Shown: piece by piece, positions 3,622-46,292 of the stretch
Numbering within the stretch: position 1 is the first letter of the stretch
How the letters are laid out: each line of letters opens with the position of its first letter
Source: a virus
Taxonomy: Duplodnaviria; Caudoviricetes
DNA: 64,000 nucleotides
Virus record (IMG/VR): IMGVR_UViG_3300032303_001222
Coordinates: 1,309 to 65,308 of that record
Strand: one strand, 5' to 3'
The notes under the pieces: model-generated
Database searches by the model: none
What the model was told of the DNA's origin: nothing
The model's input: only the letters and a program-made list of their open reading frames with translations
Program-made: the position numbers and the translations under genes

Positions 3622-3841
3622 GAAATTTCAACCGATTTCTGTAATTAGCTATAGGATAGCTATTTCTACTTTTTGCCAATTGGGCTATGACCCCGCAAAC
3701 GTAAGTTCCTTATTTCCAACAATTTCCGATAACCCCTTCAATAAAAAGACCATACATAGGAAACCTCGGAAACGCAATCGGCAAAAATAGGCAAAGATTT
3801 CCGTTGCGTTGGTCAAGACTGTCAATACTATCTGTCAAGAA

Positions 3842-5062
3842 ATGAAACCCATCATTATCAAGAAGGGCTGGGCAGAAGTTCGCATCTACGAGTGCGAAGT
3901 TCGTGGCAAATATTTCACTTATTTCGTGTGCTGGCGAGTAGGAAAACAAAGAATGCGTCGCGGGCTGGCGTCTCTTGCAGAAGCCAAGCGAGAGGCAAAA
4001 GTAATCGTGGAGCAGTTGGCGGACGGATCCGCTATGCCAGCCGAAGGAATCACTATGCGGGATCTTCAATACTACCGAGCCTGCGAAACGATGCTTAACG
4101 GCGTCCCACTCGACCGGGCGGTAAAAGCCTATCTCCAAACCAATCCAGCAGAAACAAAGGAAATCCGTGTTCCCGCGCTCGTGGAAGAGTTCCTAGCCAA
4201 AAACGAAAGTTCACTAAACTCCAATTCTCAGAAGATCACAATGCGAGCTCTCTTGAGGCGGTTTGCTTCGAAAATGTCCAAGCCTATCTCTCTGGTAACC
4301 CCACACGATATCGACGAGTACCTTGCCGACCCTACCTACGCTCCTCGCACTAGGCACAATCAGCGTTCAGCAATTATCGTCCTGTTTAACTACGCCCGTA
4401 GAAAAGGCTATTTGTCCGACGAGCGTAAACACGCTGCCGAAAAATCAGAGGAGATTAAATTTAAAAAGCCACCCGTTGAGATTTACTCCGCAGAACAAGC
4501 GGAAGCTATGCTCACCTTGTGCGACAAGAACCTAGTCCCCTTCCTCGCAATTGGGTTGTTTGCGGGCATTCGTTCTGCCGAGCTGGCGCGCTTGAAGTGG
4601 GAAAACATCGACTGGGTTGGTGGCAATATCCGTCTTGACCGAGAAATCACTAAGACCAATCAAAGTCGGTTGGCTCCCCTTATGCCCAACCTTGCTGAAT
4701 GGCTAGCCCCCTATAAAGATCTTAAGGGAAACATTCTTGCTTCAACAAAATCACGTTATCCAACGACTTTAATTTCTCCTTGGCTGGCATCTCAGGAAAA
4801 CCCGAGACTGCCCTCTAAGTGGATCGACAATGGCATGAGGCATTCATTTGCTTCGTATCACCTCGCATACACCCAGAACGCTGCCCAAACTGCCCTCGCC
4901 TGCGGTCACTCCCCAGGGATGCTTTTGGGAACATATAAGACGATCACCGTAAATGGTGAGTCTTTAAATCAGGAGGTAGCCAAGAAATACTTTGAAATTC
5001 GACCAAAGGCGGTCGACAACGTTATTTCTATATCAAGCCATGGCAAATCAAAGAAAGCTTAA
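3842..5062 (+). CDS. int: Tyrosine recombinase / integrase
   Basis: Catalytic motifs GIRSAEL (R), KT (K), MRHSFASYH (xxRH), ACGHS (H) and a downstream Tyr. N-terminal arm-binding-like region. Promoter-like TTGCGT-N16-TACTAT at 3804-3831. Confidence 0.92.
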   Translation: MKPIIIKKGWAEVRIYECEVRGKYFTYFVCWRVGKQRMRRGLASLAEAKREAKVIVEQLADGSAMPAEGITMRDLQYYRACETMLNGVPLDRAVKAYLQTNPAETKEIRVPALVEEFLAKNESSLNSNSQKITMRALLRRFASKMSKPISLVTPHDIDEYLADPTYAPRTRHNQRSAIIVLFNYARRKGYLSDERKHAAEKSEEIKFKKPPVEIYSAEQAEAMLTLCDKNLVPFLAIGLFAGIRSAELARLKWENIDWVGGNIRLDREITKTNQSRLAPLMPNLAEWLAPYKDLKGNILASTKSRYPTTLISPWLASQENPRLPSKWIDNGMRHSFASYHLAYTQNAAQTALACGHSPGMLLGTYKTITVNGESLNQEVAKKYFEIRPKAVDNVISISSHGKSKKA

Positions 5063-33271: not shown

Positions 33272-33766
33272 TTATTTTGCGGCTGTTGATGCTAGTTCTG
33301 GCTTACTACCTTGCTCGACATTGGCCGAAGGCGTTTCTTTGGCTGCAAGCTCGCTGTAGAATTTGTTGACCCCAGCAAGCCAATTATTATTCAAACCCCT
33401 TGGGTCATTTGCAGCACCTTTTGGGGCATAGATTTCAGCCAGCTTGTCAACGTCGCCACCAACCTGGTCGAGCCTTCGTTTGAGGTTCTTGGCTGAGTAA
33501 AGTAACCCCTCACCCAAAGAATCAAACTTCTTAAGTTTAGTCCACTTAGTTTGAGGATCCATAATCCCAGCGGGGTTGTTGTAGTTCTGAATCGCGTTGC
33601 TTGTTCCACGTCCTGTTTCGTGGGCAATGACGGCCGCAAAGAGTTCCGGGCTAATCCCAGCAGTCGAAGCGGCTTGGACAATAAGTCCAGTCTTGCCAGC
33701 TAAGGCTCCTTTACCAAAGAGAGTCTGAAGCTTTTGATCACCAGGAGATTGCGTACCTAAACCCAT
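33272..33766 (-). CDS. Glucosaminidase/lysozyme-like (GH73-type) peptidoglycan hydrolase, probably virion-associated
   Basis: AAVIAHETGRGTS...NNPAG...F.S..EG...Y motif; lies next to the ejection genes. Confidence 0.7.
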   Translation of the reverse strand: MGLGTQSPGDQKLQTLFGKGALAGKTGLIVQAASTAGISPELFAAVIAHETGRGTSNAIQNYNNPAGIMDPQTKWTKLKKFDSLGEGLLYSAKNLKRRLDQVGGDVDKLAEIYAPKGAANDPRGLNNNWLAGVNKFYSELAAKETPSANVEQGSKPELASTAAK

Positions 33767-33819
33767 ATGTTTTGTGTATTGATTTCCTATTACGTTTAGT
33801 TATTAAAGGAGGATATTAT

Positions 33820-34041
33820 ATGAAGGTAAATCGTCAAGAGGTCGGGTTTTTGTACGGATGTTTGTATTATTCTTATGATGTATTAGTTCGTATCTTTGCC
33901 CATTTTGTATCGGGTGCTTGTATTCTTTTGTTTGGATTGTTTCTTGGTTTCTTGCCTTGGCTTCTCACCAAAGGATTATTCTTCTTGGTTTTGCAACCAC
34001 TCGCCCAAACTTTGAAGTTTTTGTATTCTCTCGTCGTTTGA
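33820..34041 (+). CDS. Small membrane protein antisense to the structural module
   Basis: Strong RBS AAAGGAGG 7 nt before ATG 33820; 1-2 hydrophobic helices. Confidence 0.5.
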   Translation: MKVNRQEVGFLYGCLYYSYDVLVRIFAHFVSGACILLFGLFLGFLPWLLTKGLFFLVLQPLAQTLKFLYSLVV

Positions 34042-37000
34042 ATCAACCATTCGTTTAATCGCCATATTCTTGGCGTATTCAGTAGCCGAAGAGGTCACTT
34101 TCTTAACAATCTCTTGAGCAACAAACGAAGAAGATTCCTTTAGTTGCTGAACCATTTCAGGTGTGTTCAACACTTGGTTTAACATTGTTCCTCGATCCAC
34201 TTTGTATTGGTAGTACTGATCCTCTTCCATAGGAATTACCCCTAACAAAAGCTCTCTCCTCGGAGGGTTAGGGAAAGCGTTCTTCGAAGCCAATGTGTCG
34301 ACAAGCGGATCTGGCTTCCTAGCTGTTGCAATACGGGAAGTAATCGGAATTTTGTTACCAAGCATATCTACATCAGGTTTCCCATAGAGCTCTCGGAGGA
34401 CTGGGGTATTCGCAATAAAGATGCCATTCATTAGCCCATTTCTCGCCGTCCTCTTATCCATATCCGTCTCGACCCCGAACACGTTAAGGATTTTGGGTAT
34501 GATCTTCTGGTCGATATCCCTAATAATATTTGGAACAAGCAAGGAACTTCCAAGACGCCCAGCAAATGCTAGAGCTCTTGCCTTCGCCTGCTCTGGTTGC
34601 GAGCTGTCTGTGCTCTTAAATAAGTCGGACAAACCTGAAAGGAACAACATGTCAAAGGGGACAAGGATGGCTCTCATACTTACCGCTGATGTCGTGTTAA
34701 ACAAAGCCTTTGCCCCTGTTTTCTTGTAATGGTGGTTGTCTGTAATTTCACCCAAGAAAGCGAGCGGGATTGCCAAAGGAGTAGGCAAGTAGCTGATGTA
34801 AGCGTTTCCAACCTTAATGCTCCAAGGTTTCCAACCAGTCTTAGATAACGCCAGCTTAGCCGCGGGGTCATCTGGGCCAGATCCGTTGATTCTCCACCAA
34901 GCTTTTTCGTAATCTTTATCGTACCCAAAAGCCTGAAGACCAGCTGCTAGGGTCAAGAACAGCAAACCAGCCAATGCCCTTCCCCTAATCATTTCACGCT
35001 CAGCGCCTTTGACATCATCCCATTTACCAAGCCTACGCCCAATGAGCTTCTCTGTTGGGAGTCCGTAGTATCTGATCAAGCCTGGGACTACGCCCATATC
35101 AAGGGACATATTCCAAACATTTCCAACGATTCTTGTAAAAGGAATTACAAATCGTGTTTCTGGTTGTTTGGCGGCCAAAACATTCAAAGAGTGAATTACG
35201 TTACCCAAGAAGCCTTTTGGTTCTTGTTGGAAAGTATTGGTCAAAGCCGACAAGACAGATTCGTTAAGTAACTCTTGCGTGTCGACGTTACGGCTTTCGC
35301 CAGACTCGGTCTTGTTTTGCCCAAGCTGTTGATCAAGGATCTCAAAGGTTCTCAGCTTAAATTCTTTTGTTCCCGGCTTTAAACCCTCCATTAATGCGTC
35401 ACTCTGGGCGCTCTTCATCGAGTTGCTATCCCGAAGAGCGGAAGCCAAAGCCTGGGCAGAAGCGTCTTTGCGGCTTAACCCAAGCTCCAGTGCCTTATTA
35501 TAGGCGTATTTGTATAGGTAATACTCCTTGTTCATATTGTAGAACACGGAATCCACAGCAGACATAAACCTTGATACTGTTGTCGAGTAAGTTCCTAGTT
35601 TTTGGGGCAATCCTTTTGCCCGCTCTCTTAGCACTTCCCCAGTATCGGTTGCCTTTAAACTGCTTATGCTTAGTTGAACTTGTTTAGTCCAAGAAGTACC
35701 CGTCCCCATAATGTTGAGGAAATCTGCCCATCCGACTTGGATTCCACGAAGAAGCGCGGATCTCTTCTCTGGCCCTGCATTTCCAGTTAACGAAGAGTGG
35801 ATAAGCTCTGGCATTAGGACGCAGAAAGCCGTCGAGGCGTTGCCGTATAAGTTGGCTAGTTGCGTGTCGTATCCAGACAAGATGGACGAGTACCACCAGG
35901 TAAGCGTGAAATCCCACTTGTTCATTTCCGTCTTTTCGTAGATCGCTCGCATTGCTTTTTGGTAATAAACGTTTCTTTGGTAACCCTCTGGCTTGGTCTC
36001 TGCTTCCTCGGCAAGGTTGTATACTTCTTCAGCAAGTTTGGGATCGGTAAGACCTTCTTGTTCCGCAAATTGAGACCAAAGATTTATATTATCTTTATCC
36101 ATCAGCCCCAACGACGTGGCTTTAACAAGGCGGTCTAGGAATCTTTTTAGGCTAGGCTCAAGTCGCTTATCGGCTTGGCTCTTGATCAGGTTGGTAAGTG
36201 CTTTGTTTGCTTCTGTTCTTACGAGCTCCTCAATCCTCTTTGCAATCGCCGTCTCAAGCTTCTCAGCAATAGTCGGAGTGACACCTACTTCTGATGTCGA
36301 TTCGGTATTAGCACCTTGAGCTTGGAGCAGATCGGCCTCGGTTGTCTTGTTAAATACCTCACCCAAATTAGCTTGTTCAACAAAGAGTTTAGCTAAGTCC
36401 GATGCCTGTTTCTGCATCGTATTCTTCCTAAAGTGTTCGCGTATCAGAGTCTTGAGGTCGATATCCGAGGCCTTAAGAAGGGTTTTGATTTGGGGAAGCG
36501 TGAACGGCTGGTCTAAAGCTGTCTTCAAATACTCATTAAATATTGGGGCAAGTTTAGGATTTGCGGCCACTTCTTCTCGAACCGAGTCCTTAATTTGCGA
36601 CCAAGCTTGTAAGGCTTTCGGCCAGAGAGCCAGTAGGTCGGACATTCTAGAGATCGTCTTTGCTTTCTGTTTTAGTTTAATGAGATCTTCGATCTGCTCA
36701 TTGGATGCGTTCTCGTTCTCTGGGTTGCCTTCGACTTCGACATCTTTAATTGCTTTCCCCTGTTCCTTGGAAAGATTGTCGATCATCCCCTTAATCCGGC
36801 GAAGAGCCGCGGTCGCCTCCTGATTGATCGTCTTAGGCTTGTTGGTGCTACCCGCCACCGTCACAGCATCACCCTCGCCCTCAACGACTCCCTCACCCTC
36901 CTGTGGTTCTAGAGCCGCAAGACGTTCGTTAACGCTATCGGTCATACGCTTGGCGACGCTTTCGGAGAACTGTTGCCACAACGTCATCGTTGTCTTGGCC

Positions 37001-40000
37001 GCAATCTTCTTATTATTGGACTTGGAAAGACTTGTAGCTTTGGCAAGCACCTGTTCCAGATCTTTTAAGACTTTCTCTAAAGCATCCTGGGCAAGCGGAT
37101 TAAGTTTATCCTGTGCCTTCTTAATAAATTCCTTAAAGCTTTCCTTCATTACCGCGTCGCGCTTGCGAGCTTTCTTGTAATAAAGAGCCTCCATACCTTC
37201 GGGTCCAAGAAGTGAGATGAACTGGTACGCCCGCAAGGCACGAGCTGTCTTTGTGCTTTTCTCTAGAAATTGATCAAGGAAAGCTGCCATCTCTGTTGCG
37301 GCCTCTGGCCGGGTCTTGGCTTCTTCTCGGTAGCCCTTAATCACCAGCATTCCCAAAGCTTCCTGAGCACCCGCTTGGATTGGGTCGTCTTCGTCATCCA
37401 TCAAGCAAGCCAAAGCACTCTTCTCTAGTCCGTGCTTTGCGAAGTAGGCTTGTGCTTCCTCAATAGTAACCGAATCAGGAATTGCCTCGTAGTTCCTCTT
37501 CTTTAGAAGCCCCATCACATCTTTCGAAACATACTTTTCTAGCTTCACCCCAAATCTTCTTGGACGAACTTCAGCCGCACCGAGGATGTCGTTTACGGGG
37601 TAGGCTCTGTCAGACGTAGCGGAAGGAGCTGTTCTCCTCTGGAAAATGAAAGTATTCGGCTGACCCTTAAACTTAATCTTTGATATGTTGTGGCGGTTCA
37701 GAGCTGAGTCAGAAGCAACCGCATAGCTGGCCAAGGCCGCGGCTGAGTCGGTCGAATACATTGTCTTCCCCTTGTAGCGGAGAACGTTTCTTCCCGTGGC
37801 TCCATCCTTTGTGACTAACCCTTCCAGCTTTTGAGCAAGCTGGCTCTTCTTCAATTCCCCAGGCTCTTGGATTGAGCTGAACCGACCAGAGTTTACTGCG
37901 TTTTTCACGCCATCCCGGCGGAAGGCCAAGAAGTTCCAAGCCGAGTTCTCGTTGTATTTGGCCAAGGCTTCATCGTAGTTAGCCTTCAGCTTTGCGTCTG
38001 TCTGGTCAGCCATCAACTTACGAGCTGCGTCGATCACTAGGCTGGCCTCGGCATCTCTGCCTTCTTTCAACCAGACCCCGTCAAAACCAAGATCAATAAT
38101 GTTCTTAAGGCTTGGGTATCCATAAGTCTTGCCCCACATCTTCTTGATTGTTTCCTCGCTTACCCCCTGCTTCCTCAACTCATCTACATCGGGCATATTT
38201 CTTGGGCCAGTCAGCGACCCATCTTCTTTACGATAATCCAACTTCCCTTCAAAAATTTGCCAATCGTGTAGCCCAGACTTAAAAGCAAATTCAACTTCTG
38301 GATCTGGTGTGTACCCCTGACCTTTGACAACTTCTAGGAGTTGATTGATATTCTCCGAGGATCTTGGGTCAAAAGGCTTGGTGGATTTGACGTACATAGG
38401 GATGACCACTTGGCCTTCGAAGTGACCCTCTGGATTATTCTTAGTTGCCCATCGTTCTGCCCACTCCCTCATCGTGGATGTCCAAACACCCTTGAACCGA
38501 TTCATTGCCAACCTACGGAGGTAAGACGGAGTCTTTATGGCGTTGGTGAGTTCGTCTTTGTAGAGGTCACTATACCTTTGGAGATACGAGCCAGTGCCGT
38601 GGTACATCAAGGCTGGCTCACCAGACTCATCCAAGATCTTGCTGGTGGCTCGGCTTTGCGGGGCATTCTCCCAATCGCCAAACCAAGCCTTAAACAGCGG
38701 GGTTCTTTCGAGGCGATATCTAAACTCAGACTTCGGAACCATCTTCGACCCCATACCCGAAACCATACTTTCCTTACCCGTAGCCTTATTGATTAGGTTG
38801 CCTTTGTTATTTCTAGTTACTTCGACTGCAGCCATTTGGCCACGTAGTCTCTCGAAGAACTCTTCGGTTTGTTGCTCTGTAACCCCAGTAACTGGGGTGA
38901 TGATATCAACAGCCGAAAGCTGATCAGCCATATATTGGAGACGATTCCCCATGTACTGCTGGAGACGCTGGGGTACTGCGTTTATGATAGCGTCTGCGTT
39001 GAGTACAAGATCGGAAAGCTGGGCGATCAAGTCGTCGGTAGTGAGGTTAAGGTAGGGGTAGTTCTGCTTAAACACCTTGATTGAATCGTAATAGAAAGGC
39101 TCGTTCCTAGGTTCTTCTTCGAACGCCTTGGTGTCGAACGTGCCGCCGCTGTCTACACGATACGTTGTGTAAATTGTTTCCGTGTCGTCTCCATCTTCGT
39201 TCGGAGTTTCCGTCATCTGGATGAGCACGTTGTCCTGTTTGGTCACACCGACTGAATCGTAGTTAAACAAGAAAGCATCGATCAGAAGACCATCCGCAAT
39301 CTGGTCATAGATCTTTTTGATAAGCTCGGGTTTGTTCTGATGAGTCTGGCGAAACTCCCTCAAGCTCTGGCCATCGGCAAGGTAGGCAGCAATTTTGGCT
39401 GGCTTGCCATCTACCTCAATAAGTTTGGAGTCGGCAACCGGGTAGTTGAGAACGCGATATACATTCTCAGCTGCGACCTCGTTCTCAAACTGCTCCCGGC
39501 TTTGGTCGGTCTTGACGATAAACCGATTGCCGTCGACATCTTGGTAAATCGCAACTGGGTGGGATCCGCCAGAAACTTCTCGCTCAAAGGCCAGCTCCTC
39601 AATGCTGTCTGGAAGCCTGCTTTTCTTCTGGCTTCCGTTGCGCTGGTTCGAAAGGAATCCCCGTCTCGGCATAGCGGGAGCTCCGATAACGTCTGACTGC
39701 GGTGGCTCGTATACAACCTTGCTCCGAGGTCTACCGCTGATCGAAGTAAGATCCTGAATAAGCTTAACTTCGTCTTCAATCGCGGCTTCAAGAAGTTTGT
39801 CTAGTTGAGTTTTGCTTGGGCTACCCTCGAAATACAGATTGAACCCGTCACCCACAACCCGTAACCAACCACGCTTCAACATCTCCTCGACTGGCTTCTC
39901 TTGCTGTTCTTTCTTGCTGTAGGTATCGACAAGCCTCCACTCCAATAAGAAAGGATCTTCTGGTTGGTTTTCGTTGAGCCATTCGATGGCTGTCTCGGCG

Positions 40001-43000
40001 TGTGTGCCGATAGCGTTTAAATCAATCAAAGCCTCTTCTGGAACTTCAAGAACTTCTCCATCGTTCTTCATCCAATAAGGGCGATCTGTTGGGATTGCCG
40101 CGCCGATAACCTCACTTCGAGCTGCTTTAGCTTTCTGTCCAAGTTCTTTGAGCTTTGCTTGGATGGCTTCGACGTACTGAGCCTTGTTCCAAGTGGGTAC
40201 GTATGTCTTAAACTCTTCGCTCTTTCTTGTTTTCGGGTTGAACCTTACGCCAGTAATCTTTGCCGTCGGTACCTTGATCCCAAGTTCTTTGGCGTACTCC
40301 TGGAGAAATTCTTTCCTAGCCGTAAATAACCCGCTGTTCTCAACCTCGGGAGTCACGGGAGGCTTCTCAAACTTTGACTCCGTTTTCTTAGGCTCGACGT
40401 AGGCGTTACCTGCCTTCTCTTGCATCGGCGGGCGTAAAATATTTAAGGACTTCTGCCTAAGAAGGCGGGTCGTGTTAATGAGGTACCGGGCATCGTTGTC
40501 TCTTACACCTACTAGGCGAGCCGCGATGTTGGTGATCGCCTGAATGATTGAATCAATAAAGTCGCTTAGAGATTTCCTCTCAATGTCGTCCATAAAGGCC
40601 GCAAGCTCTTCGGTCGTTATTGTGTTGTCCTCGGTGACGCTCCCAACAGTTTCGTTCTCGACCATCATCCGAATGAATTCGAAGTATTGCTGTTCGTCGT
40701 TTGCGAACTTCCCTTCGTCGTTGTTGTAAAGCCGAGCCACTAGCTTCTTGAGCCTGCGATTCTTGTTGAGAAGACGAGCTACTCGCTTGGCCTCGTTCTT
40801 AAGGTGCTGGTCGAAGGTAAGGCCAAGCTGACCCGCCTCTTTCTCAAGCTGTTTAAGATGGACGTTGTGAACTGTCTCGTGCGTCGCAACAGCCATCAGT
40901 TGCCAGTTCACCCATCTCTTAGCTCCCTCCTCCTTGCCGAATTTGCGGATGAGCTGACGTTTCTGGGCAAGCAAAGCCTCTGGGCTTACGTATATGGAAA
41001 GCCCCTGCCTATCACTCTTAAGAACGTAGACTGGGTTATCTGTTTGCCCGACCTTTAGTTCCCCAGGAAATCGGATTGCCCTAAGGGTGTTAAACAAATC
41101 GTTTAACGCTGCCCGCGCGGCTTTCGATATGTCTAAGTTTTCGAAGCCTGCGTCGACTTTGAGGCTGGGAACATTTCCCGAAGTTGCTGGCTGTTCTTTG
41201 CCCACTCCGGGTTGTCTTCGGCTAGGTCGTGTACGGCTTCCAGAATTCTGGTTGGTTTCGCTTTCGCTCGCAGTAGATCCGACAGATGCGGGTGTCCCCC
41301 GTGATTGTGTATCGCCTGATCCAGATGGTTGCTGAACGCTAGGTTGTTCACGAACTCCTGTGCGTTTGCGTCGTCTGGAAACAGGTTTGCTAGGCTCGGG
41401 CTGTTTAACGATTGGTTCATTTGGTTGTCCTTTCTTAATGTTCTCAAGTCTTTGTTCTACCGAAGCCTCCTCCAAGTTACCCTCTTCAAGAGGGGTAAGA
41501 ACCTCGGAAGCAAGTCTGCTCCTTTGCTCTGGTGTAGAGTTGTAGGCGGATTCGATAAGTTTTTCGGCTAGGTATTGATTCTGTGTTGAGTTCCTCCCTC
41601 GATCGGCCAACTCTTGAGCCTCGGCCTTGTCTTTCTTAACTTTTTCTTTGGCTTCAGCTTTTTCCTTGGCTCTCGTCCTAGCCTTCTCCCCCTCTGGGGT
41701 TAGAGCTGTCGAGATTTGGTCGGTCGAGACCCCTATTCCAGAGTTATTTAGCTCCGCGGCAAGCGCCGTTTGCGCCTCTTTAGCCATCTTGGATACGGCT
41801 TTTGCAGAAACCTTTTTCTTGTTCAGCTCGCTTAGGAACTTCGCCAAATCCTCGTACGACTGGAGGTTCTTTGTCTCAATACCTGAAGGCGTTGGCCCAC
41901 CGCTTAGTTTGTGAACCAGCCAATCCAAAATGAGTTTCTGGTCTGGGCCAAGCTTCTCACGGGCTGGGTTATATCCGTTCTCACGGAGGATTCTAGACGC
42001 CCTAGGTTCATTAGCCCCGCTCTCTACTCTGGCTTGCTTTGTTTCGCCAGCCGCCTGCTCCTCTTCATCCAATTCCATCTGAGTCCTAGCTGGTCTGTCA
42101 GAGGTCTCCGTTTGATCAAGGATCGGGGAGTTACGCATAAGTGCCTGGATGTCGGCACTTCCCCTTGCGTCCTTAGCGGAGTCCTCCGCCCAACTCGCTA
42201 GGATTGGGCTAATTGCTTCTGATGTCAGCTCTTCTTCGGTAAAGGTATTCTTCTTTTGAAGGTAGTTGGCCACCTTGCGAAGAAGGTCATCGAAAATGTA
42301 GTCATCAACGTTTGGTATATTTGTGTATCTCTCAGATACCTCTTTCGCAATCCGACGGATGTTTGAGAAAGCCATCTCCTTCCACGACTGCTGCCCTTCG
42401 TTTAGTTTGCTGTCTCGGACGGAGTAAAGTTTTTGCCGAAGGTTTGCTTTCTTCTTCGCTCTCCGCTTCTCGTCGGAGTTCATAGCCTCGAGTGGGTTTA
42501 CCTTCGCGGCAATCCCAGGCACGGCATCAATATTCTTCTCAAGCCCAGCTACCTTTCCATACTGAGTCTCAAGAGCCTTAAGGTAATCGCCACGCTTCCA
42601 CCCAGCCTTTTCCTCAATTTTCTGACCCTCTGGCAAGGCCTTGTTTGCTTTGCTTAAGGTAGATCGCAAGAAACGGATTTGGTTCTTGTTCTTTTGAACT
42701 TCTTCCCACTTGGGCAGTTCAGCTTGTTTTGTTTTTGGTGCCTGAGTACTTAATGCAGGAGCGACAGCTTCTGAACTTTCTTTAGCAGGCTCTGGCTTGG
42801 CTGTCGGCACAGGAGCGACGGCTTGGGCTTGGGGCATTTCTGCTTCTGGAGCTTTTGCTTCGGTGGCTGTTGTTTCTTCGACTGGAATTTCCGCAGGTTT
42901 TTCTGTTTCATTCTTTTCGGCGTTAAATTCATAGTCGCCTGTTTCAGGATTAAGCAACCACTGCTTGGGTAAAACAAAACCAAACCTTTCAATGTCATCT

Positions 43001-44418
43001 CCTTTTACTGGTTGCCTAGATCTGATCCGACCCCAGACCTTGGCGGCCTCGAGACTATTCTGTGCGTCCATCGGTGTCTCTGCCGTTGGTGCTATCGATT
43101 CAACTTCTGGCGACAATGCTGGAGCTTCTGCTTTGGGTGTTGCTGGCTGTTCGCTATCAAAGACCTTTGCAGCTTCCGCTTTATTCATATCCAAGTTGAG
43201 CTGATCGATATCTTGAGCTCCCGCAACAGCCCCAGCTTGGACTACCGCTTGAGCTGTCTGTGGCGCTCCTGATTTCGCTAGGTTCTCTGCTTGGGCAAGC
43301 GTTCCGTTTTGGCTCATCTGCTCAGCAAGGTCGTTTTGACGGATATCAGAGACTTGGTCTTGGTTAAGAGTTTCTTGGACGGCTCCTAGTCCTTCCTTGC
43401 CAACCCCTTTAGCAAATGCATACGCAGACCCTGGTACTTCAAGGAATCCTTCTAGGGCTATGGCATTCGGACTTGTAATCTCGCCTTCAGAAAGAAGTTG
43501 CCCACCAGCCTCACCACCAGCACCCAGACCAGCTTCGATAGCTACTCCAGTAGCCGACTCCAAAGCGGTAAGTTTAACCTTTGGTATAAACCCCTTTGTT
43601 GTCTTAAACTTTGTTGCGAACCTACCTCCCAAGGCTTTCGCCACAACCATTGACGCCGCGTCAAACGCTCCAGGCACAACTCCTTTTTTAAGAGCCTTGC
43701 CCTTTGCCTTATCCATAAATTCTTTATCAAGAAAGGCATCACGAACTTGTATCGGATCGTTTAGATCAATCCCCTCTTCGGACATTTGCTCCAGCAAAGA
43801 GCCAGAATATTCGAGCATAGTAGATGTTGCGCCAGCACCAGCCGCCAACCCTACAGTAGATCCAATTGCGGCTCCGGGTGCCTTGCCGATAACACCGCCA
43901 ATTGCAGATCCAACCTTTTCAGTAACGATACTAGTGGCTAGCTGAGAAGGTATATTCTCAAGGAGAAACTCAAGAACTGCGATTGGCTTTTCTTGGAACC
44001 CTTCAAGCACACCCATCTTGTCTGCCCCAACTTTCTGGACAGTGCTGGAAGATGGGTATTTCTCGAGTTCTTTGTTAATACCAGCCAAGGCGTATGAGGC
44101 CTCTGGGCTTGTTGCGGCTCCCGTTGATATTGCCGTAGTTAATCCAGCTTGCTCAAAGTTTAAAAGGGATCGTGCGGCAGCGTTTTTAAGGAGCTGCATA
44201 GGGCTCTGCGTATCTAGGATATCGTAGTAGGCGGCCTCAAAGTGGTTGTTTAAGTAATCTACATCCTCTTGTGTTTTTAATAGGCCTTCCTTTTGAGCTA
44301 CGCCTACGGAAGCGTCCCGCCACTGCTTAAAGAGATCTGTTTTTTCCGATACCGAAAGGTTCCCGTACTCTGGATCTTCTGTGTAATTTGTCCAAGGGAC
44401 GATTGTCTCATCCGCCAT
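33976..44418 (-). CDS. Giant (3480 aa) internal virion/DNA-ejection polyvalent protein
   Basis: Sits in the ejection-gene position. Contains a sigma-like HTH region, HETVH zincin motif, HipA/PI3K-like kinase motifs and ART-PolyVal motifs (FKAWFGDW, YHGT, GFDGV), plus an LPD38-like C-terminus. Confidence 0.8.
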   Translation of the reverse strand: MADETIVPWTNYTEDPEYGNLSVSEKTDLFKQWRDASVGVAQKEGLLKTQEDVDYLNNHFEAAYYDILDTQSPMQLLKNAAARSLLNFEQAGLTTAISTGAATSPEASYALAGINKELEKYPSSSTVQKVGADKMGVLEGFQEKPIAVLEFLLENIPSQLATSIVTEKVGSAIGGVIGKAPGAAIGSTVGLAAGAGATSTMLEYSGSLLEQMSEEGIDLNDPIQVRDAFLDKEFMDKAKGKALKKGVVPGAFDAASMVVAKALGGRFATKFKTTKGFIPKVKLTALESATGVAIEAGLGAGGEAGGQLLSEGEITSPNAIALEGFLEVPGSAYAFAKGVGKEGLGAVQETLNQDQVSDIRQNDLAEQMSQNGTLAQAENLAKSGAPQTAQAVVQAGAVAGAQDIDQLNLDMNKAEAAKVFDSEQPATPKAEAPALSPEVESIAPTAETPMDAQNSLEAAKVWGRIRSRQPVKGDDIERFGFVLPKQWLLNPETGDYEFNAEKNETEKPAEIPVEETTATEAKAPEAEMPQAQAVAPVPTAKPEPAKESSEAVAPALSTQAPKTKQAELPKWEEVQKNKNQIRFLRSTLSKANKALPEGQKIEEKAGWKRGDYLKALETQYGKVAGLEKNIDAVPGIAAKVNPLEAMNSDEKRRAKKKANLRQKLYSVRDSKLNEGQQSWKEMAFSNIRRIAKEVSERYTNIPNVDDYIFDDLLRKVANYLQKKNTFTEEELTSEAISPILASWAEDSAKDARGSADIQALMRNSPILDQTETSDRPARTQMELDEEEQAAGETKQARVESGANEPRASRILRENGYNPAREKLGPDQKLILDWLVHKLSGGPTPSGIETKNLQSYEDLAKFLSELNKKKVSAKAVSKMAKEAQTALAAELNNSGIGVSTDQISTALTPEGEKARTRAKEKAEAKEKVKKDKAEAQELADRGRNSTQNQYLAEKLIESAYNSTPEQRSRLASEVLTPLEEGNLEEASVEQRLENIKKGQPNEPIVKQPEPSKPVSRRRKRTGVREQPSVQQPSGSGDTQSRGTPASVGSTASESETNQNSGSRTRPSRRQPGVGKEQPATSGNVPSLKVDAGFENLDISKAARAALNDLFNTLRAIRFPGELKVGQTDNPVYVLKSDRQGLSIYVSPEALLAQKRQLIRKFGKEEGAKRWVNWQLMAVATHETVHNVHLKQLEKEAGQLGLTFDQHLKNEAKRVARLLNKNRRLKKLVARLYNNDEGKFANDEQQYFEFIRMMVENETVGSVTEDNTITTEELAAFMDDIERKSLSDFIDSIIQAITNIAARLVGVRDNDARYLINTTRLLRQKSLNILRPPMQEKAGNAYVEPKKTESKFEKPPVTPEVENSGLFTARKEFLQEYAKELGIKVPTAKITGVRFNPKTRKSEEFKTYVPTWNKAQYVEAIQAKLKELGQKAKAARSEVIGAAIPTDRPYWMKNDGEVLEVPEEALIDLNAIGTHAETAIEWLNENQPEDPFLLEWRLVDTYSKKEQQEKPVEEMLKRGWLRVVGDGFNLYFEGSPSKTQLDKLLEAAIEDEVKLIQDLTSISGRPRSKVVYEPPQSDVIGAPAMPRRGFLSNQRNGSQKKSRLPDSIEELAFEREVSGGSHPVAIYQDVDGNRFIVKTDQSREQFENEVAAENVYRVLNYPVADSKLIEVDGKPAKIAAYLADGQSLREFRQTHQNKPELIKKIYDQIADGLLIDAFLFNYDSVGVTKQDNVLIQMTETPNEDGDDTETIYTTYRVDSGGTFDTKAFEEEPRNEPFYYDSIKVFKQNYPYLNLTTDDLIAQLSDLVLNADAIINAVPQRLQQYMGNRLQYMADQLSAVDIITPVTGVTEQQTEEFFERLRGQMAAVEVTRNNKGNLINKATGKESMVSGMGSKMVPKSEFRYRLERTPLFKAWFGDWENAPQSRATSKILDESGEPALMYHGTGSYLQRYSDLYKDELTNAIKTPSYLRRLAMNRFKGVWTSTMREWAERWATKNNPEGHFEGQVVIPMYVKSTKPFDPRSSENINQLLEVVKGQGYTPDPEVEFAFKSGLHDWQIFEGKLDYRKEDGSLTGPRNMPDVDELRKQGVSEETIKKMWGKTYGYPSLKNIIDLGFDGVWLKEGRDAEASLVIDAARKLMADQTDAKLKANYDEALAKYNENSAWNFLAFRRDGVKNAVNSGRFSSIQEPGELKKSQLAQKLEGLVTKDGATGRNVLRYKGKTMYSTDSAAALASYAVASDSALNRHNISKIKFKGQPNTFIFQRRTAPSATSDRAYPVNDILGAAEVRPRRFGVKLEKYVSKDVMGLLKKRNYEAIPDSVTIEEAQAYFAKHGLEKSALACLMDDEDDPIQAGAQEALGMLVIKGYREEAKTRPEAATEMAAFLDQFLEKSTKTARALRAYQFISLLGPEGMEALYYKKARKRDAVMKESFKEFIKKAQDKLNPLAQDALEKVLKDLEQVLAKATSLSKSNNKKIAAKTTMTLWQQFSESVAKRMTDSVNERLAALEPQEGEGVVEGEGDAVTVAGSTNKPKTINQEATAALRRIKGMIDNLSKEQGKAIKDVEVEGNPENENASNEQIEDLIKLKQKAKTISRMSDLLALWPKALQAWSQIKDSVREEVAANPKLAPIFNEYLKTALDQPFTLPQIKTLLKASDIDLKTLIREHFRKNTMQKQASDLAKLFVEQANLGEVFNKTTEADLLQAQGANTESTSEVGVTPTIAEKLETAIAKRIEELVRTEANKALTNLIKSQADKRLEPSLKRFLDRLVKATSLGLMDKDNINLWSQFAEQEGLTDPKLAEEVYNLAEEAETKPEGYQRNVYYQKAMRAIYEKTEMNKWDFTLTWWYSSILSGYDTQLANLYGNASTAFCVLMPELIHSSLTGNAGPEKRSALLRGIQVGWADFLNIMGTGTSWTKQVQLSISSLKATDTGEVLRERAKGLPQKLGTYSTTVSRFMSAVDSVFYNMNKEYYLYKYAYNKALELGLSRKDASAQALASALRDSNSMKSAQSDALMEGLKPGTKEFKLRTFEILDQQLGQNKTESGESRNVDTQELLNESVLSALTNTFQQEPKGFLGNVIHSLNVLAAKQPETRFVIPFTRIVGNVWNMSLDMGVVPGLIRYYGLPTEKLIGRRLGKWDDVKGAEREMIRGRALAGLLFLTLAAGLQAFGYDKDYEKAWWRINGSGPDDPAAKLALSKTGWKPWSIKVGNAYISYLPTPLAIPLAFLGEITDNHHYKKTGAKALFNTTSAVSMRAILVPFDMLFLSGLSDLFKSTDSSQPEQAKARALAFAGRLGSSLLVPNIIRDIDQKIIPKILNVFGVETDMDKRTARNGLMNGIFIANTPVLRELYGKPDVDMLGNKIPITSRIATARKPDPLVDTLASKNAFPNPPRRELLLGVIPMEEDQYYQYKVDRGTMLNQVLNTPEMVQQLKESSSFVAQEIVKKVTSSATEYAKNMAIKRMVDSNDERIQKLQSLGEWLQNQEE

Positions 44419-44421
44419 ATA

Positions 44422-45447
44422 CTATCGTCCTTGGTTATTTGGTTTTCCCGCGGCCTTCTTCTGGCTCGGCAGTAGCGGGAATGCGTCTTTAAGTGATCTC
44501 TTTTCCTCCTGTTTTGGTTTTTGTTGAGTCTTTACGTCGATCTCTTCATCTTCGGTTTCACCGGGTAGCTTGTCTGATATACCAGCAGTTTGCTTCGCAA
44601 TCTGAAGTTTCGTTGCGGCCAAATCTCTTTCCTCTTTGAGTTGTTGCTTAACCGCCGCAGGAATAACTGGATTGGCTGTTGCGTCTCGGTAGCTCTTGCT
44701 GGCTTCATTGAACTCAATCGTAGCTGTCTTGAGACCTTCAATTGTAAGTTCGGTTCCGTATTTGTACCGGGCTTTGATAAGATCTGGGTCACGCTTCTGG
44801 ACTTCTTTTTCGACTTTGCTTGCTAAAGACGCTGCCAACATCTCTTCGTCTTGCGTCAATTGCTCGCGACGAAGAAGTTTTTTGCCTAGCATTTCGGATA
44901 CGCCCCTAGCCTCTTCTGTAAATCCGTTGTCTGGCGTAAGATACTTTGAACCCTTCAGCAGTAGGTTGCCCCGCTCACTACGATCTTTGTACTCGACGCT
45001 TGAAGCTAAGGCTTTATCTCGCAGTTCACGTTCAGCCATCTTAAGTTTGGCTCGCATCCTCGGTCTAATATTCTCGGGAGCTTGTTCAATCACACTCATA
45101 TCTGGAGACCATTTTTCAATGGCGTCTGGATCACCGTGCAAATTGTCCAACTCAGTCGCAAATCCAGCAATTATCGGAGCCGTACTAGTATCAGCCTCCC
45201 AATCCACAGCTTGGCGATTCCACATTTGCATTTGTGCATCTTGGTATTTGCCAGTCATATCGAGACGTTTATTTTCCATCTCGTAATTGCGATCAGCTTG
45301 CCGAATTTGTTCGGCATAAGACTTTTCTCGTAGGCTCAAATCTTTTTGAGCCATATCCTGGCGTTGAGCCATCAAGTAGTTCGAGACAATAGCCTGCGAA
45401 CCCGTGACTAGGTTATTGAAAACCTGCTGTCCCTGTTCTGGCGTCAT
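44422..45447 (-). CDS. Internal virion (ejection) protein
   Basis: Helical Gln/Ala/Glu-rich protein upstream of the giant ejection gene. Confidence 0.6.
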   Translation of the reverse strand: MTPEQGQQVFNNLVTGSQAIVSNYLMAQRQDMAQKDLSLREKSYAEQIRQADRNYEMENKRLDMTGKYQDAQMQMWNRQAVDWEADTSTAPIIAGFATELDNLHGDPDAIEKWSPDMSVIEQAPENIRPRMRAKLKMAERELRDKALASSVEYKDRSERGNLLLKGSKYLTPDNGFTEEARGVSEMLGKKLLRREQLTQDEEMLAASLASKVEKEVQKRDPDLIKARYKYGTELTIEGLKTATIEFNEASKSYRDATANPVIPAAVKQQLKEERDLAATKLQIAKQTAGISDKLPGETEDEEIDVKTQQKPKQEEKRSLKDAFPLLPSQKKAAGKPNNQGR

Positions 45448-46292
45448 GGCGCGTAGAAGTTAGGGAATTGATACCCTTTTCCGTCTGAACCTCTTGCGAC
45501 GGCCAGCATATTTCCACCAGCAATGCCAGCGCCACCCAAGGCCGAACCCATTCCAAAGCCTTGGCCACCACCAAAAGACCCGCCAATCTGAGAACCAATC
45601 GACAACCCCATTGGGATAGACATCCCACCAGTAAATGGAGCGGCGAGCACTCCGAGGCCAGCACCAAGTACGCTTCCTCCGATTGCACTCCAAGGACTGC
45701 CACCGTACTGCTGGTTATATTGGTAGTTAGACAATTGCTGCTGGTTGTATGTGCTTGTCGTGGCATCGGCCTGCCGATTTTTAATTTGGTTATTATACTG
45801 GGCTAAGTTCACGTCCTCTGCCCGGATCGCCTGCGGAGTAAAGGCAAGGTTCATAGCCTGTAACGGCATCATAGCATTTGCCTCAGCTCTCAAGGCTTGT
45901 TGAGCCGCGAGACCCCTACCCTGTAGCTCCATTGAGCTTAGACCAAAATCTCGTGCTTCGATCCCAGCTCTCTGCCCAGCACCAGAACCCATAGACAAAC
46001 CTTTAAATGCGGCTGTCTGTGAAATCTTTTGAGCTACGTCGGCTGGGATTAACCCGTCAGCGTAAGAGTCAGATACTTGCTGTGCCTTGCTTACTCCAGC
46101 TTTGTATCCTGGTTGCAACTGCTCAAGAGCATCAACCTTTTTGGTGGCCGAGGATGTTAGAACATCCTGAATCGCCCCAAAATCCTTCTCTTCCTCAATG
46201 AATTTCGTTAGAGCTGTTCGAAGTTCTGGTAGTGATAACTCCGTATATTGCGGAGCTTGGAACTCTGGCTTTTTCGGTTTTGATTGGCTCAT
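45444..46292 (-). CDS. DNA pilot/ejection protein
   Basis: Gln-rich helices and a Gly-rich hydrophobic C-terminus (SAIGGSVLGAGLGVLAAPFTGG). Confidence 0.65.
   Translation of the reverse strand: MSQSKPKKPEFQAPQYTELSLPELRTALTKFIEEEKDFGAIQDVLTSSATKKVDALEQLQPGYKAGVSKAQQVSDSYADGLIPADVAQKISQTAAFKGLSMGSGAGQRAGIEARDFGLSSMELQGRGLAAQQALRAEANAMMPLQAMNLAFTPQAIRAEDVNLAQYNNQIKNRQADATTSTYNQQQLSNYQYNQQYGGSPWSAIGGSVLGAGLGVLAAPFTGGMSIPMGLSIGSQIGGSFGGGQGFGMGSALGGAGIAGGNMLAVARGSDGKGYQFPNFYAP

Follow-up and report, generated by a model that had tools for sequence, protein, structure and literature searches.

Several phages carry the means for controlling early transcription in their particles. The N4 virion RNA polymerase (~3,500 aa), the phiKZ virion RNA polymerase and T4 Alt are virion-carried, enter the cell together with the DNA and control early transcription (PMC5512222; PMC13282480). 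For the polyvalent proteins (Iyer et al. 2017) it has been proposed that they enter by injection together with the DNA, undergo processing and 'jump-start transcription' (PMC5512222). The survey of these proteins lists ADP-ribosyltransferases (ARTs), kinases, N4-type RNA polymerase fusions and many other domains, and no sigma domain (PMC5512222). Phage-borne minimal sigma factors which redirect the host RNA polymerase to phage promoters are known from phiEco32 (gp36) and SU10 (gp32); they are encoded by separate middle genes, are made after infection and have the promoter motif tAATGTATAtA, and the SU10 factor has been found as a single peptide in a crude polyethylene glycol preparation expected to hold non-virion proteins (PMC4281155). 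Apart from this one peptide, no injected or virion-borne sigma factor was found described in the literature. Here we report on a predicted sigma-like module within P0001, a presumed virion protein of 3,480 aa from an uncultured phage.

P0001 is encoded in a window of 64,000 nucleotides, the whole stretch of DNA that was analysed. The window is nearly the whole 65.3-kb IMG/VR record IMGVR_UViG_3300032303_001222 (positions 1,309 to 65,308), which is estimated to be 91% complete. According to the open reading frame call and translation, P0001 is a single open frame on the minus strand (33976..44418). It resembles the polyvalent proteins in being giant and multi-domain, with a candidate ART-PolyVal-like and a candidate zincin-like part and with low-complexity spacers, and such spacers also border the sigma-like segment. 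An earlier note on this DNA had drawn attention to this segment and had remarked that no sigma domain was known from large polyvalent ejection proteins; indeed, the word 'sigma' occurs zero times in the founding paper (PMC5512222). In its giant size P0001 is similar to the N4 virion RNA polymerase. N4, phiKZ and T4 Alt deliver a whole polymerase or an enzyme modifying RNA polymerase, whereas the module proposed here would supply the host enzyme with just a subunit that binds the polymerase or gives it specificity. In contrast to phiEco32 gp36 and SU10 gp32, the module belongs to a presumed virion protein, and no cognate promoter has been found for it. It would be a sigma-type module in a new architectural and delivery context.

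The closest counterparts of the module are the extracytoplasmic function (ECF, group 4) sigma factors, such as E. coli sigmaE, S. coelicolor SigR and M. tuberculosis SigH and SigL. As in these, the predicted architecture runs from a sigma2-like domain over a flexible acidic linker to a sigma4-like helix-turn-helix (HTH) domain, and neither sigma1.1 nor sigma3 is present. The module differs from them in its linker of about 50 aa, which is longer than usual, and in an additional loop (about 12-17 residues) that separates helices of the sigma4-like part. It also lacks the Q-E pair of region 2.2, most of the basic residues of the recognition helix and a match to the sigma profiles. Finally, it is embedded at aa 670-896 of P0001, whereas the ECF sigma factors are free-standing.

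On the minus strand the segment includes a basic, K/R-rich helix (aa 648-666, 42421..42477), which AlphaFold2 placed at segment residues 9-27 with a moderate predicted local distance difference test score (pLDDT). Just behind it lies the sigma2-like helical domain of the AlphaFold2 model (aa 670-753, 42160..42411). It is followed by an acidic linker of about 50 aa (aa 754-805, 42004..42159), acidic by its charge counts and predicted to be disordered (pLDDT 31-57), and by the sigma4-like four-helix HTH domain, likewise taken from the AlphaFold2 model (aa 806-896, 41731..42003). The sequence strings on which the earlier note had based its proposal of a sigma-70-like domain at 41740-42400 were all located in P0001, in the order given there and within that range (aa 683-890, 41749-42372). 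Four of them lie in the sigma2-like domain, namely AFSNIRRIAKEVSERY (aa 683-698, 42325-42372), DDYIFDDLL (aa 705-713), NTFT (aa 724-727) and PILASWAEDSAKDA (aa 738-751). QMELDEE (aa 780-786) lies in the linker, and EKLGPDQKLILDWL (aa 821-834), LQSYEDLAKFL (aa 852-862) and VSAKAVSKMAKEAQTALAAEL (aa 870-890, 41749-41811) lie in the sigma4-like domain. The proposed reading of QMELDEE as the SLD motif of sigma region 3 is not supported; the string is situated in a part of low confidence that is probably disordered. With QMELDEE in the linker and no sigma3, the layout is ECF-like and not sigma70-like.

The evidence for a sigma-like fold comes from predicted structures. AlphaFold2 was run on the family alignment (A1, eight to nine sequences, effective number of sequences 2.3) and predicted two confident helical domains, aa ~670-753 with pLDDT 83-91 and aa ~806-896 with pLDDT 71-91, joined by about 50 residues of low confidence. 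When this model was compared with the PDB by Foldseek, most of the top 50 rows were sigma factors aligned across both domains, and within these 50 rows the C-terminal domain matched sigma4-type domains only; no match to the PDB was obtained at E<=0.001. A second AlphaFold2 model, made for the segment of a relative of 24% identity, showed the same two-domain layout and again retrieved mostly sigma factors, with SigL at rank 1 (167 of 174 aa aligned). Against BFVD, the top three matches of this second model were phage sigma factors (E 0.015-0.058; Foldseek probabilities 0.97, 0.96 and 0.85). The Foldseek E-values were all above 0.01. The whole-chain alignments span 144-167 residues of sigma chains which are 159-174 residues long, and ECF sigma factors were the best structural matches both for each domain and over the two domains together. 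Both the order sigma2-linker-sigma4 and the HTH fold of sigma4 (regions 4.1-4.2) are present in the predicted structure. The comparison of about aa 670-900 by AlphaFold and Foldseek, which the earlier note had suggested as a check, returned sigma2-like and sigma4-like matches and not only a generic helical bundle or a lone HTH.

An alignment-free feature search of the ESM Atlas pointed in the same direction. Eleven of the 30 nearest named clusters were viral 'sigma factor family' clusters (PF04542), and the neighbours further included clusters of Sigma70_r4, Sigma70_r4_2, GerE and HTH_23. The score was 0.94, but the shared-feature counts of 144-151 correspond to a distant relative at best. The case goes beyond a single weak match because each domain matches its cognate sigma domain and the order is correct, which was seen with three libraries, two aligners and two sequences. 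Judged by these models, the module is probably a real, very diverged sigma-like unit of the ECF type as far as its fold is concerned. The parallel in order and spacing that had been drawn to sigma-70 is supported for regions 2 and 4. The sigma-70 type itself is not supported, as the layout has no sigma3. Nor does any curated sigma profile match; the Q-E pair of region 2.2 has been replaced, and the recognition helix varies and is only weakly basic.

From this fold we tentatively propose, as a possibility that we place somewhat short of probable, that the diverged ECF-type module engages the core of the host RNA polymerase once the giant protein has reached the cytoplasm. P0001, encoded by the last of three ejection-type genes and with a C-terminal core that marks an ejection protein, would travel within the virion and be ejected along with the DNA. 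Once in the cytoplasm, the module would become accessible, either in cis or through cleavage of P0001 by its own HExxH peptidase. On the core of the host RNA polymerase the sigma2-like domain would then dock at the beta-prime clamp helices and the sigma4-like domain at the beta flap, and the acidic linker would lie in the RNA exit path, which is the arrangement of ECF sigma factors. The outcome would be an early capture of the host enzyme, in which the module could confer promoter specificity for the first genes of the phage, tether the polymerase to the end of the DNA that enters or compete with the host sigma factor. Packaging, ejection, processing, polymerase binding and promoter effect of the module are all steps that we infer.

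Observations on the sequence comparisons, the residues at the functional positions, the origin of the models and the phage promoters weigh against this proposal. With Pfam and NCBIfam no sigma match was found even at E<=10, neither for the whole of P0001 nor for the segment nor for nine family members, and the segment was not recognized as a member of Sigma70_r2 (PF04542), Sigma70_r4 or r4_2 (PF04545/PF08281) or TIGR02937. Nor did the PHROGs yield a sigma-family match for P0001, the segment or the family members; the Pfam, NCBIfam and PHROG scans of these sequences gave only sub-threshold noise (Helicase_Sgs1, Mlp). Searches of all PDB sequences with phmmer and with the family profile retrieved no sigma factor. 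The scores of hidden Markov models (-2 to +6.6 bits) overlap those of reversed-sequence controls, which reached up to +2.9.

For profile-profile comparisons, sigma reference alignments were built from the six E. coli sigma factors and then from 13, 29 and 40 sequences, with E. coli genes and the ECF genes of about 60 Pseudomonadota genomes as sources; a search for RpoE homologues had returned only near-identical orthologues. The comparison of A1 with the four sigma alignments by hhalign gave P values of 0.004-0.15 and probabilities under 10%, which again does not favour the proposal. The alignments were always collinear over nearly the whole of RpoE, with the motif positions in register. Taken domain by domain, the N-terminal domain matched sigma2 with P 0.0042 and the C-terminal domain matched sigma4 with P 0.0036, whereas the crossed controls gave P 0.42 and 0.56. 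As a further control, 113 overlapping windows of 92 aa over the whole giant family were compared with the sigma profiles. The best of the 113 windows for the sigma2 profile was aa 661-752 with a score of 21.2, the background being 10.9 +/- 2.5 with a maximum of 17.5. For the sigma4 profile aa 1321-1442 came ahead of aa 781-932, which reached no more than ranks three to five, and other windows of P0001 attained P values against it similar to that of the segment. As judged from sequence, the signal is in the right places and is statistically not secure, and it does not place the segment within the sigma family.

Two side observations concern these regions of P0001. A second HTH-like stretch, FLQEYAKELGIKVPTAKI (aa ~1371-1388, ~40255-40308, minus strand), lies within the window aa 1321-1442 that outscored the C-terminal domain against the sigma4 profile. 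In addition, aa 1212-1286 gave a weak phmmer self-match to aa 797-872.

The residues of the module were compared with those of ECF sigma factors. The N-terminal domain starts with G-E/D-Q-x-x-W/F, which in the hhalign register and the family alignment stands opposite the G-D-x-x-A-F of ECF sigma factors. At the position of region 2.2 the motif is D-x-I-F/Y; the Asp of this region corresponds to the second Asp of N-V-D-D-Y-I-F and is present in the clade of the window, and the Q-E pair is replaced by F/Y and D/N/G, both in an hhalign register that is statistically insecure. The aromatic residue of region 2.3 (W/Y/F) occurs only in the distant clade, Ile taking its place in the clade of the window. 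The I-A-x-N-x-A-x-D of region 2.4 has its counterpart in A-x-x-x-A-x-D-A, whose A, A, D and A do not vary. Within the C-terminal domain L-G/S-P-D/E-x-K, located before the HTH, corresponds to L-P-x-x-x-R, and S/T-Y-x-D/E-L-A, located in the scaffold helix, corresponds to S-Y-E-E-I-A. The recognition helix is poor in basic residues, and only K and V of a K-x-V at its start are invariant. It is the replaced Q-E pair, the Ile in region 2.3 and this recognition helix that speak against polymerase engagement. Within the linker P126, Q141 and E143 (numbering of A1) are invariant, and a T-Q-x-E motif is kept down to 24% identity. Its conservation in a linker predicted to be disordered suggests that T-Q-x-E is a contact surface or a processing site.

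As for the models, the two AlphaFold2 predictions depend on one shared shallow alignment.

To the promoters of the phage the following applies. A six-frame scan of the genome with Sigma70_r2, r4 and r4_2 was empty, while control genomes responded, and no RNA polymerase family of the T7/N4 type was detected in the genome, with a control that was uninformative. As neither a sigma nor a T7-type polymerase family was found elsewhere in the genome, the phage presumably depends on the host polymerase. The sequence TCTTGACA is enriched in the window (12 copies, 2.6 expected), with sites that include 20110, 20120, 21456, 27891 and 46646. The promoter class TTGACA-N15-TAnAnT that had been listed before was recovered, as several cTTGACa sites (15954, 46652, 1857) are followed by TAnAnT about 15 nt downstream. 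These candidate promoters (cTTGACa ... TAnAnT) look sigma70-like and could be used by the host's own sigma factor. No second promoter class was found, a shallow search of intergenic 8-mers yielding only TCTTGAC(A/G), and ECF-like TGAAC words (TGCTGAAC-type) were not enriched.

We considered other explanations for the sigma-like segment. First, a sigma-like fold could have been exapted for a partner other than RNA polymerase. It could bind a host anti-sigma factor or another sigma-binding protein by mimicry of the PhyR type, or it could serve, as a putative scaffold or by binding DNA, to keep the end of the genome in place within the particle or where it enters. ECF-like domains of the PhyR type which do not bind polymerase exist. 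The core-binding Q-E of region 2.2 has been lost here although the fold is retained, plain HTH families (HTH_23, GerE) are among the ESM neighbours, and P0001 has further HTH-like stretches. However, in most cases a unit of sigma2 and sigma4 domains joined by an acidic linker is polymerase-binding, and neither a receiver domain nor a partner gene is evident. We regard such an exaptation as rather unlikely.

Second, the resemblance could be due to chance, with a generic three-helix bundle and a generic HTH for which AlphaFold2, working on a shallow alignment, drifted to the commonest fold with that pattern of helices. The sequence statistics at noise level, the Foldseek E-values and the lack of independence between the two models would all be expected in this case. 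Yet chance does not readily account for two domains which each match the cognate sigma domain in the right order, with three libraries and two aligners, over nearly the whole length of the sigma chains. Moreover, the matches of the C-terminal domain were of the sigma4 type only, the crossed hhalign pairs failed where the cognate pairs scored, and the independent embedding search also landed on viral sigma clusters. A chance resemblance is therefore unlikely in our view.

Third, the module could be a true promoter-specificity factor, freed by the protein's own peptidase, that joins the host core and starts the early promoters before any phage gene is expressed. All the fold evidence would apply to such a factor, the phage has no detectable sigma or RNA polymerase gene of its own, and release of the module could be brought about by the candidate HExxH peptidase of P0001, an idea taken from PMC5512222; the earlier note also lists, besides the TTGACA-N15-TAnAnT class, a motif TCTTGACA-N14-CAGG, of which TCTTGACA is the enriched part. 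This explanation is nevertheless quite improbable, since the residues for recognition and melting of the -10 element and the basic residues for recognition of the -35 element are not conserved, the enriched motif is a -35 element of the sigma70 type which the host's primary sigma could read, and the intergenic k-mer scan gave no ECF-like or other distinct consensus. P0001 was also considered as an N4-type virion RNA polymerase because of its size, and this was rejected as there was no RNA_pol family match (with an uninformative control) and no similarity in any search.

If the ECF-type module does bind the host RNA polymerase, this would be an undescribed entry strategy in which only the polymerase-binding or promoter-reading subunit is brought in by an ejected protein, and transcription would be taken over in the first seconds of infection by a phage that does not encode a polymerase. 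The module would then also be a new class of domain for the polyvalent proteins and, with about 230 residues, a compact handle on the early host takeover by uncultured phages. Were it the true promoter-specificity factor of the third explanation, this would be a third way to bootstrap an infection, beside the injected whole polymerase (N4, phiKZ) and the injected enzyme that modifies RNA polymerase (T4 Alt).

Conservation of the module extends over three clades, down to 24% identity. A phmmer search of 1.84 billion representatives returned five relatives; four are long (1,891-3,583 aa), and in the fifth, of 225 aa, only the end matched. From 5.8 billion sequences a word-indexed search retrieved 16 proteins, all of 2.7-4.3 thousand aa, and no relative of the module came up when proteins of 146-468 aa were searched with the profile. 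As the relatives are giant and the search among the shorter proteins was empty, there is no detectable free-standing form. As far as these searches show, all known relatives of the giant protein have the module, and it is confined to giant proteins. Among GenBank phages neither a relative at the DNA level nor a protein relative of the segment was found.

The only GenBank match of P0001 is a 1,121-aa protein of the uncultured 40-kb podovirus MW202801.1 (11781-15146), and it is restricted to a conserved C-terminal core of P0001 (aa 2842-3450, 34069..35895, minus strand; tblastn and blastp, 23% identity, E 1e-25). This protein is encoded after two smaller genes which follow the gene of a 'stabilization protein' and before an endolysin gene, the same position as that of P0001, where it forms the last member of an ejection-type trio, and the sigma-like segment is absent from it. 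The limitation of the match to the C-terminal core suggests that the N-terminal 2,800 aa of P0001 are accreted modules. According to its hydropathy, the core contains one transmembrane-like segment (aa 3148-3166).

Other parts of P0001 are also reminiscent of polyvalent proteins. An ART-PolyVal-like ADP-ribosyltransferase region was found on the minus strand at aa 1930-2052 (38263..38631) as a match to PF18760 with E 2.5e-6 and 28.8 bits, below the cut-off of 31.2 bits; PF18760 is precomputed on most homologues of P0001. A zincin-like HETVH (HExxH) motif, located by its position and without a match to a peptidase family, lies at aa 1180-1184 (40867..40881, minus strand). By analogy with the polyvalent proteins (PMC5512222) it would be a candidate processing peptidase of the polyprotein. 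In the 3,480 aa of P0001 we counted only two Cys (aa 2338 and 2866) compared with 41 Trp. The near-absence of Cys may fit a protein that travels unfolded through the tail and the periplasm. The ART-PolyVal-like stretch, the HExxH motif, the transmembrane segment and the scarcity of Cys fit the picture of polyvalent proteins (PMC5512222) and that of an ejection-protein core to which effector modules have been accreted. That P0001 is packaged and ejected is what we infer from its gene context.

P0001 is situated in the minus-strand virion block of the window, between the tail genes and the lysozyme gene. On its 5' side are tail and virion-structural genes with PHROG matches, followed by two co-oriented genes of 282 aa and 341 aa (44422..46292, minus strand), which have no family match and form with the giant gene a trio that is kept in the relatives. 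Downstream lies a lysozyme or glucosaminidase-like gene of 164 aa (33272..33766, minus strand) with matches to PHROG 1259, 25820 and 342; PF01832 is found in the relatives. In every related contig that was fetched the order is the same: a gene of ~282 aa, one of ~360 aa, the giant gene, a small gene on the opposite strand and the glucosaminidase gene.

The small gene corresponds in the window to a hydrophobic open reading frame on the plus strand (33772-34041), which codes for 89 aa from a TTG or for ~74 aa from the first ATG. Its orientation is convergent to that of the giant gene, whose 3' end it overlaps by ~66 nt. An opposite-strand gene of 69-75 aa is present at the same place, beside the lysozyme gene, in all six related loci (6/6). 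Its product could be a holin-like membrane protein, for which we regard it as a candidate. Elsewhere in the window, a gene of the phage-integrase family was found at 3809-5062 on the plus strand (PF00589, E 6.6e-8), which suggests a temperate lifestyle for this 65-kb phage.

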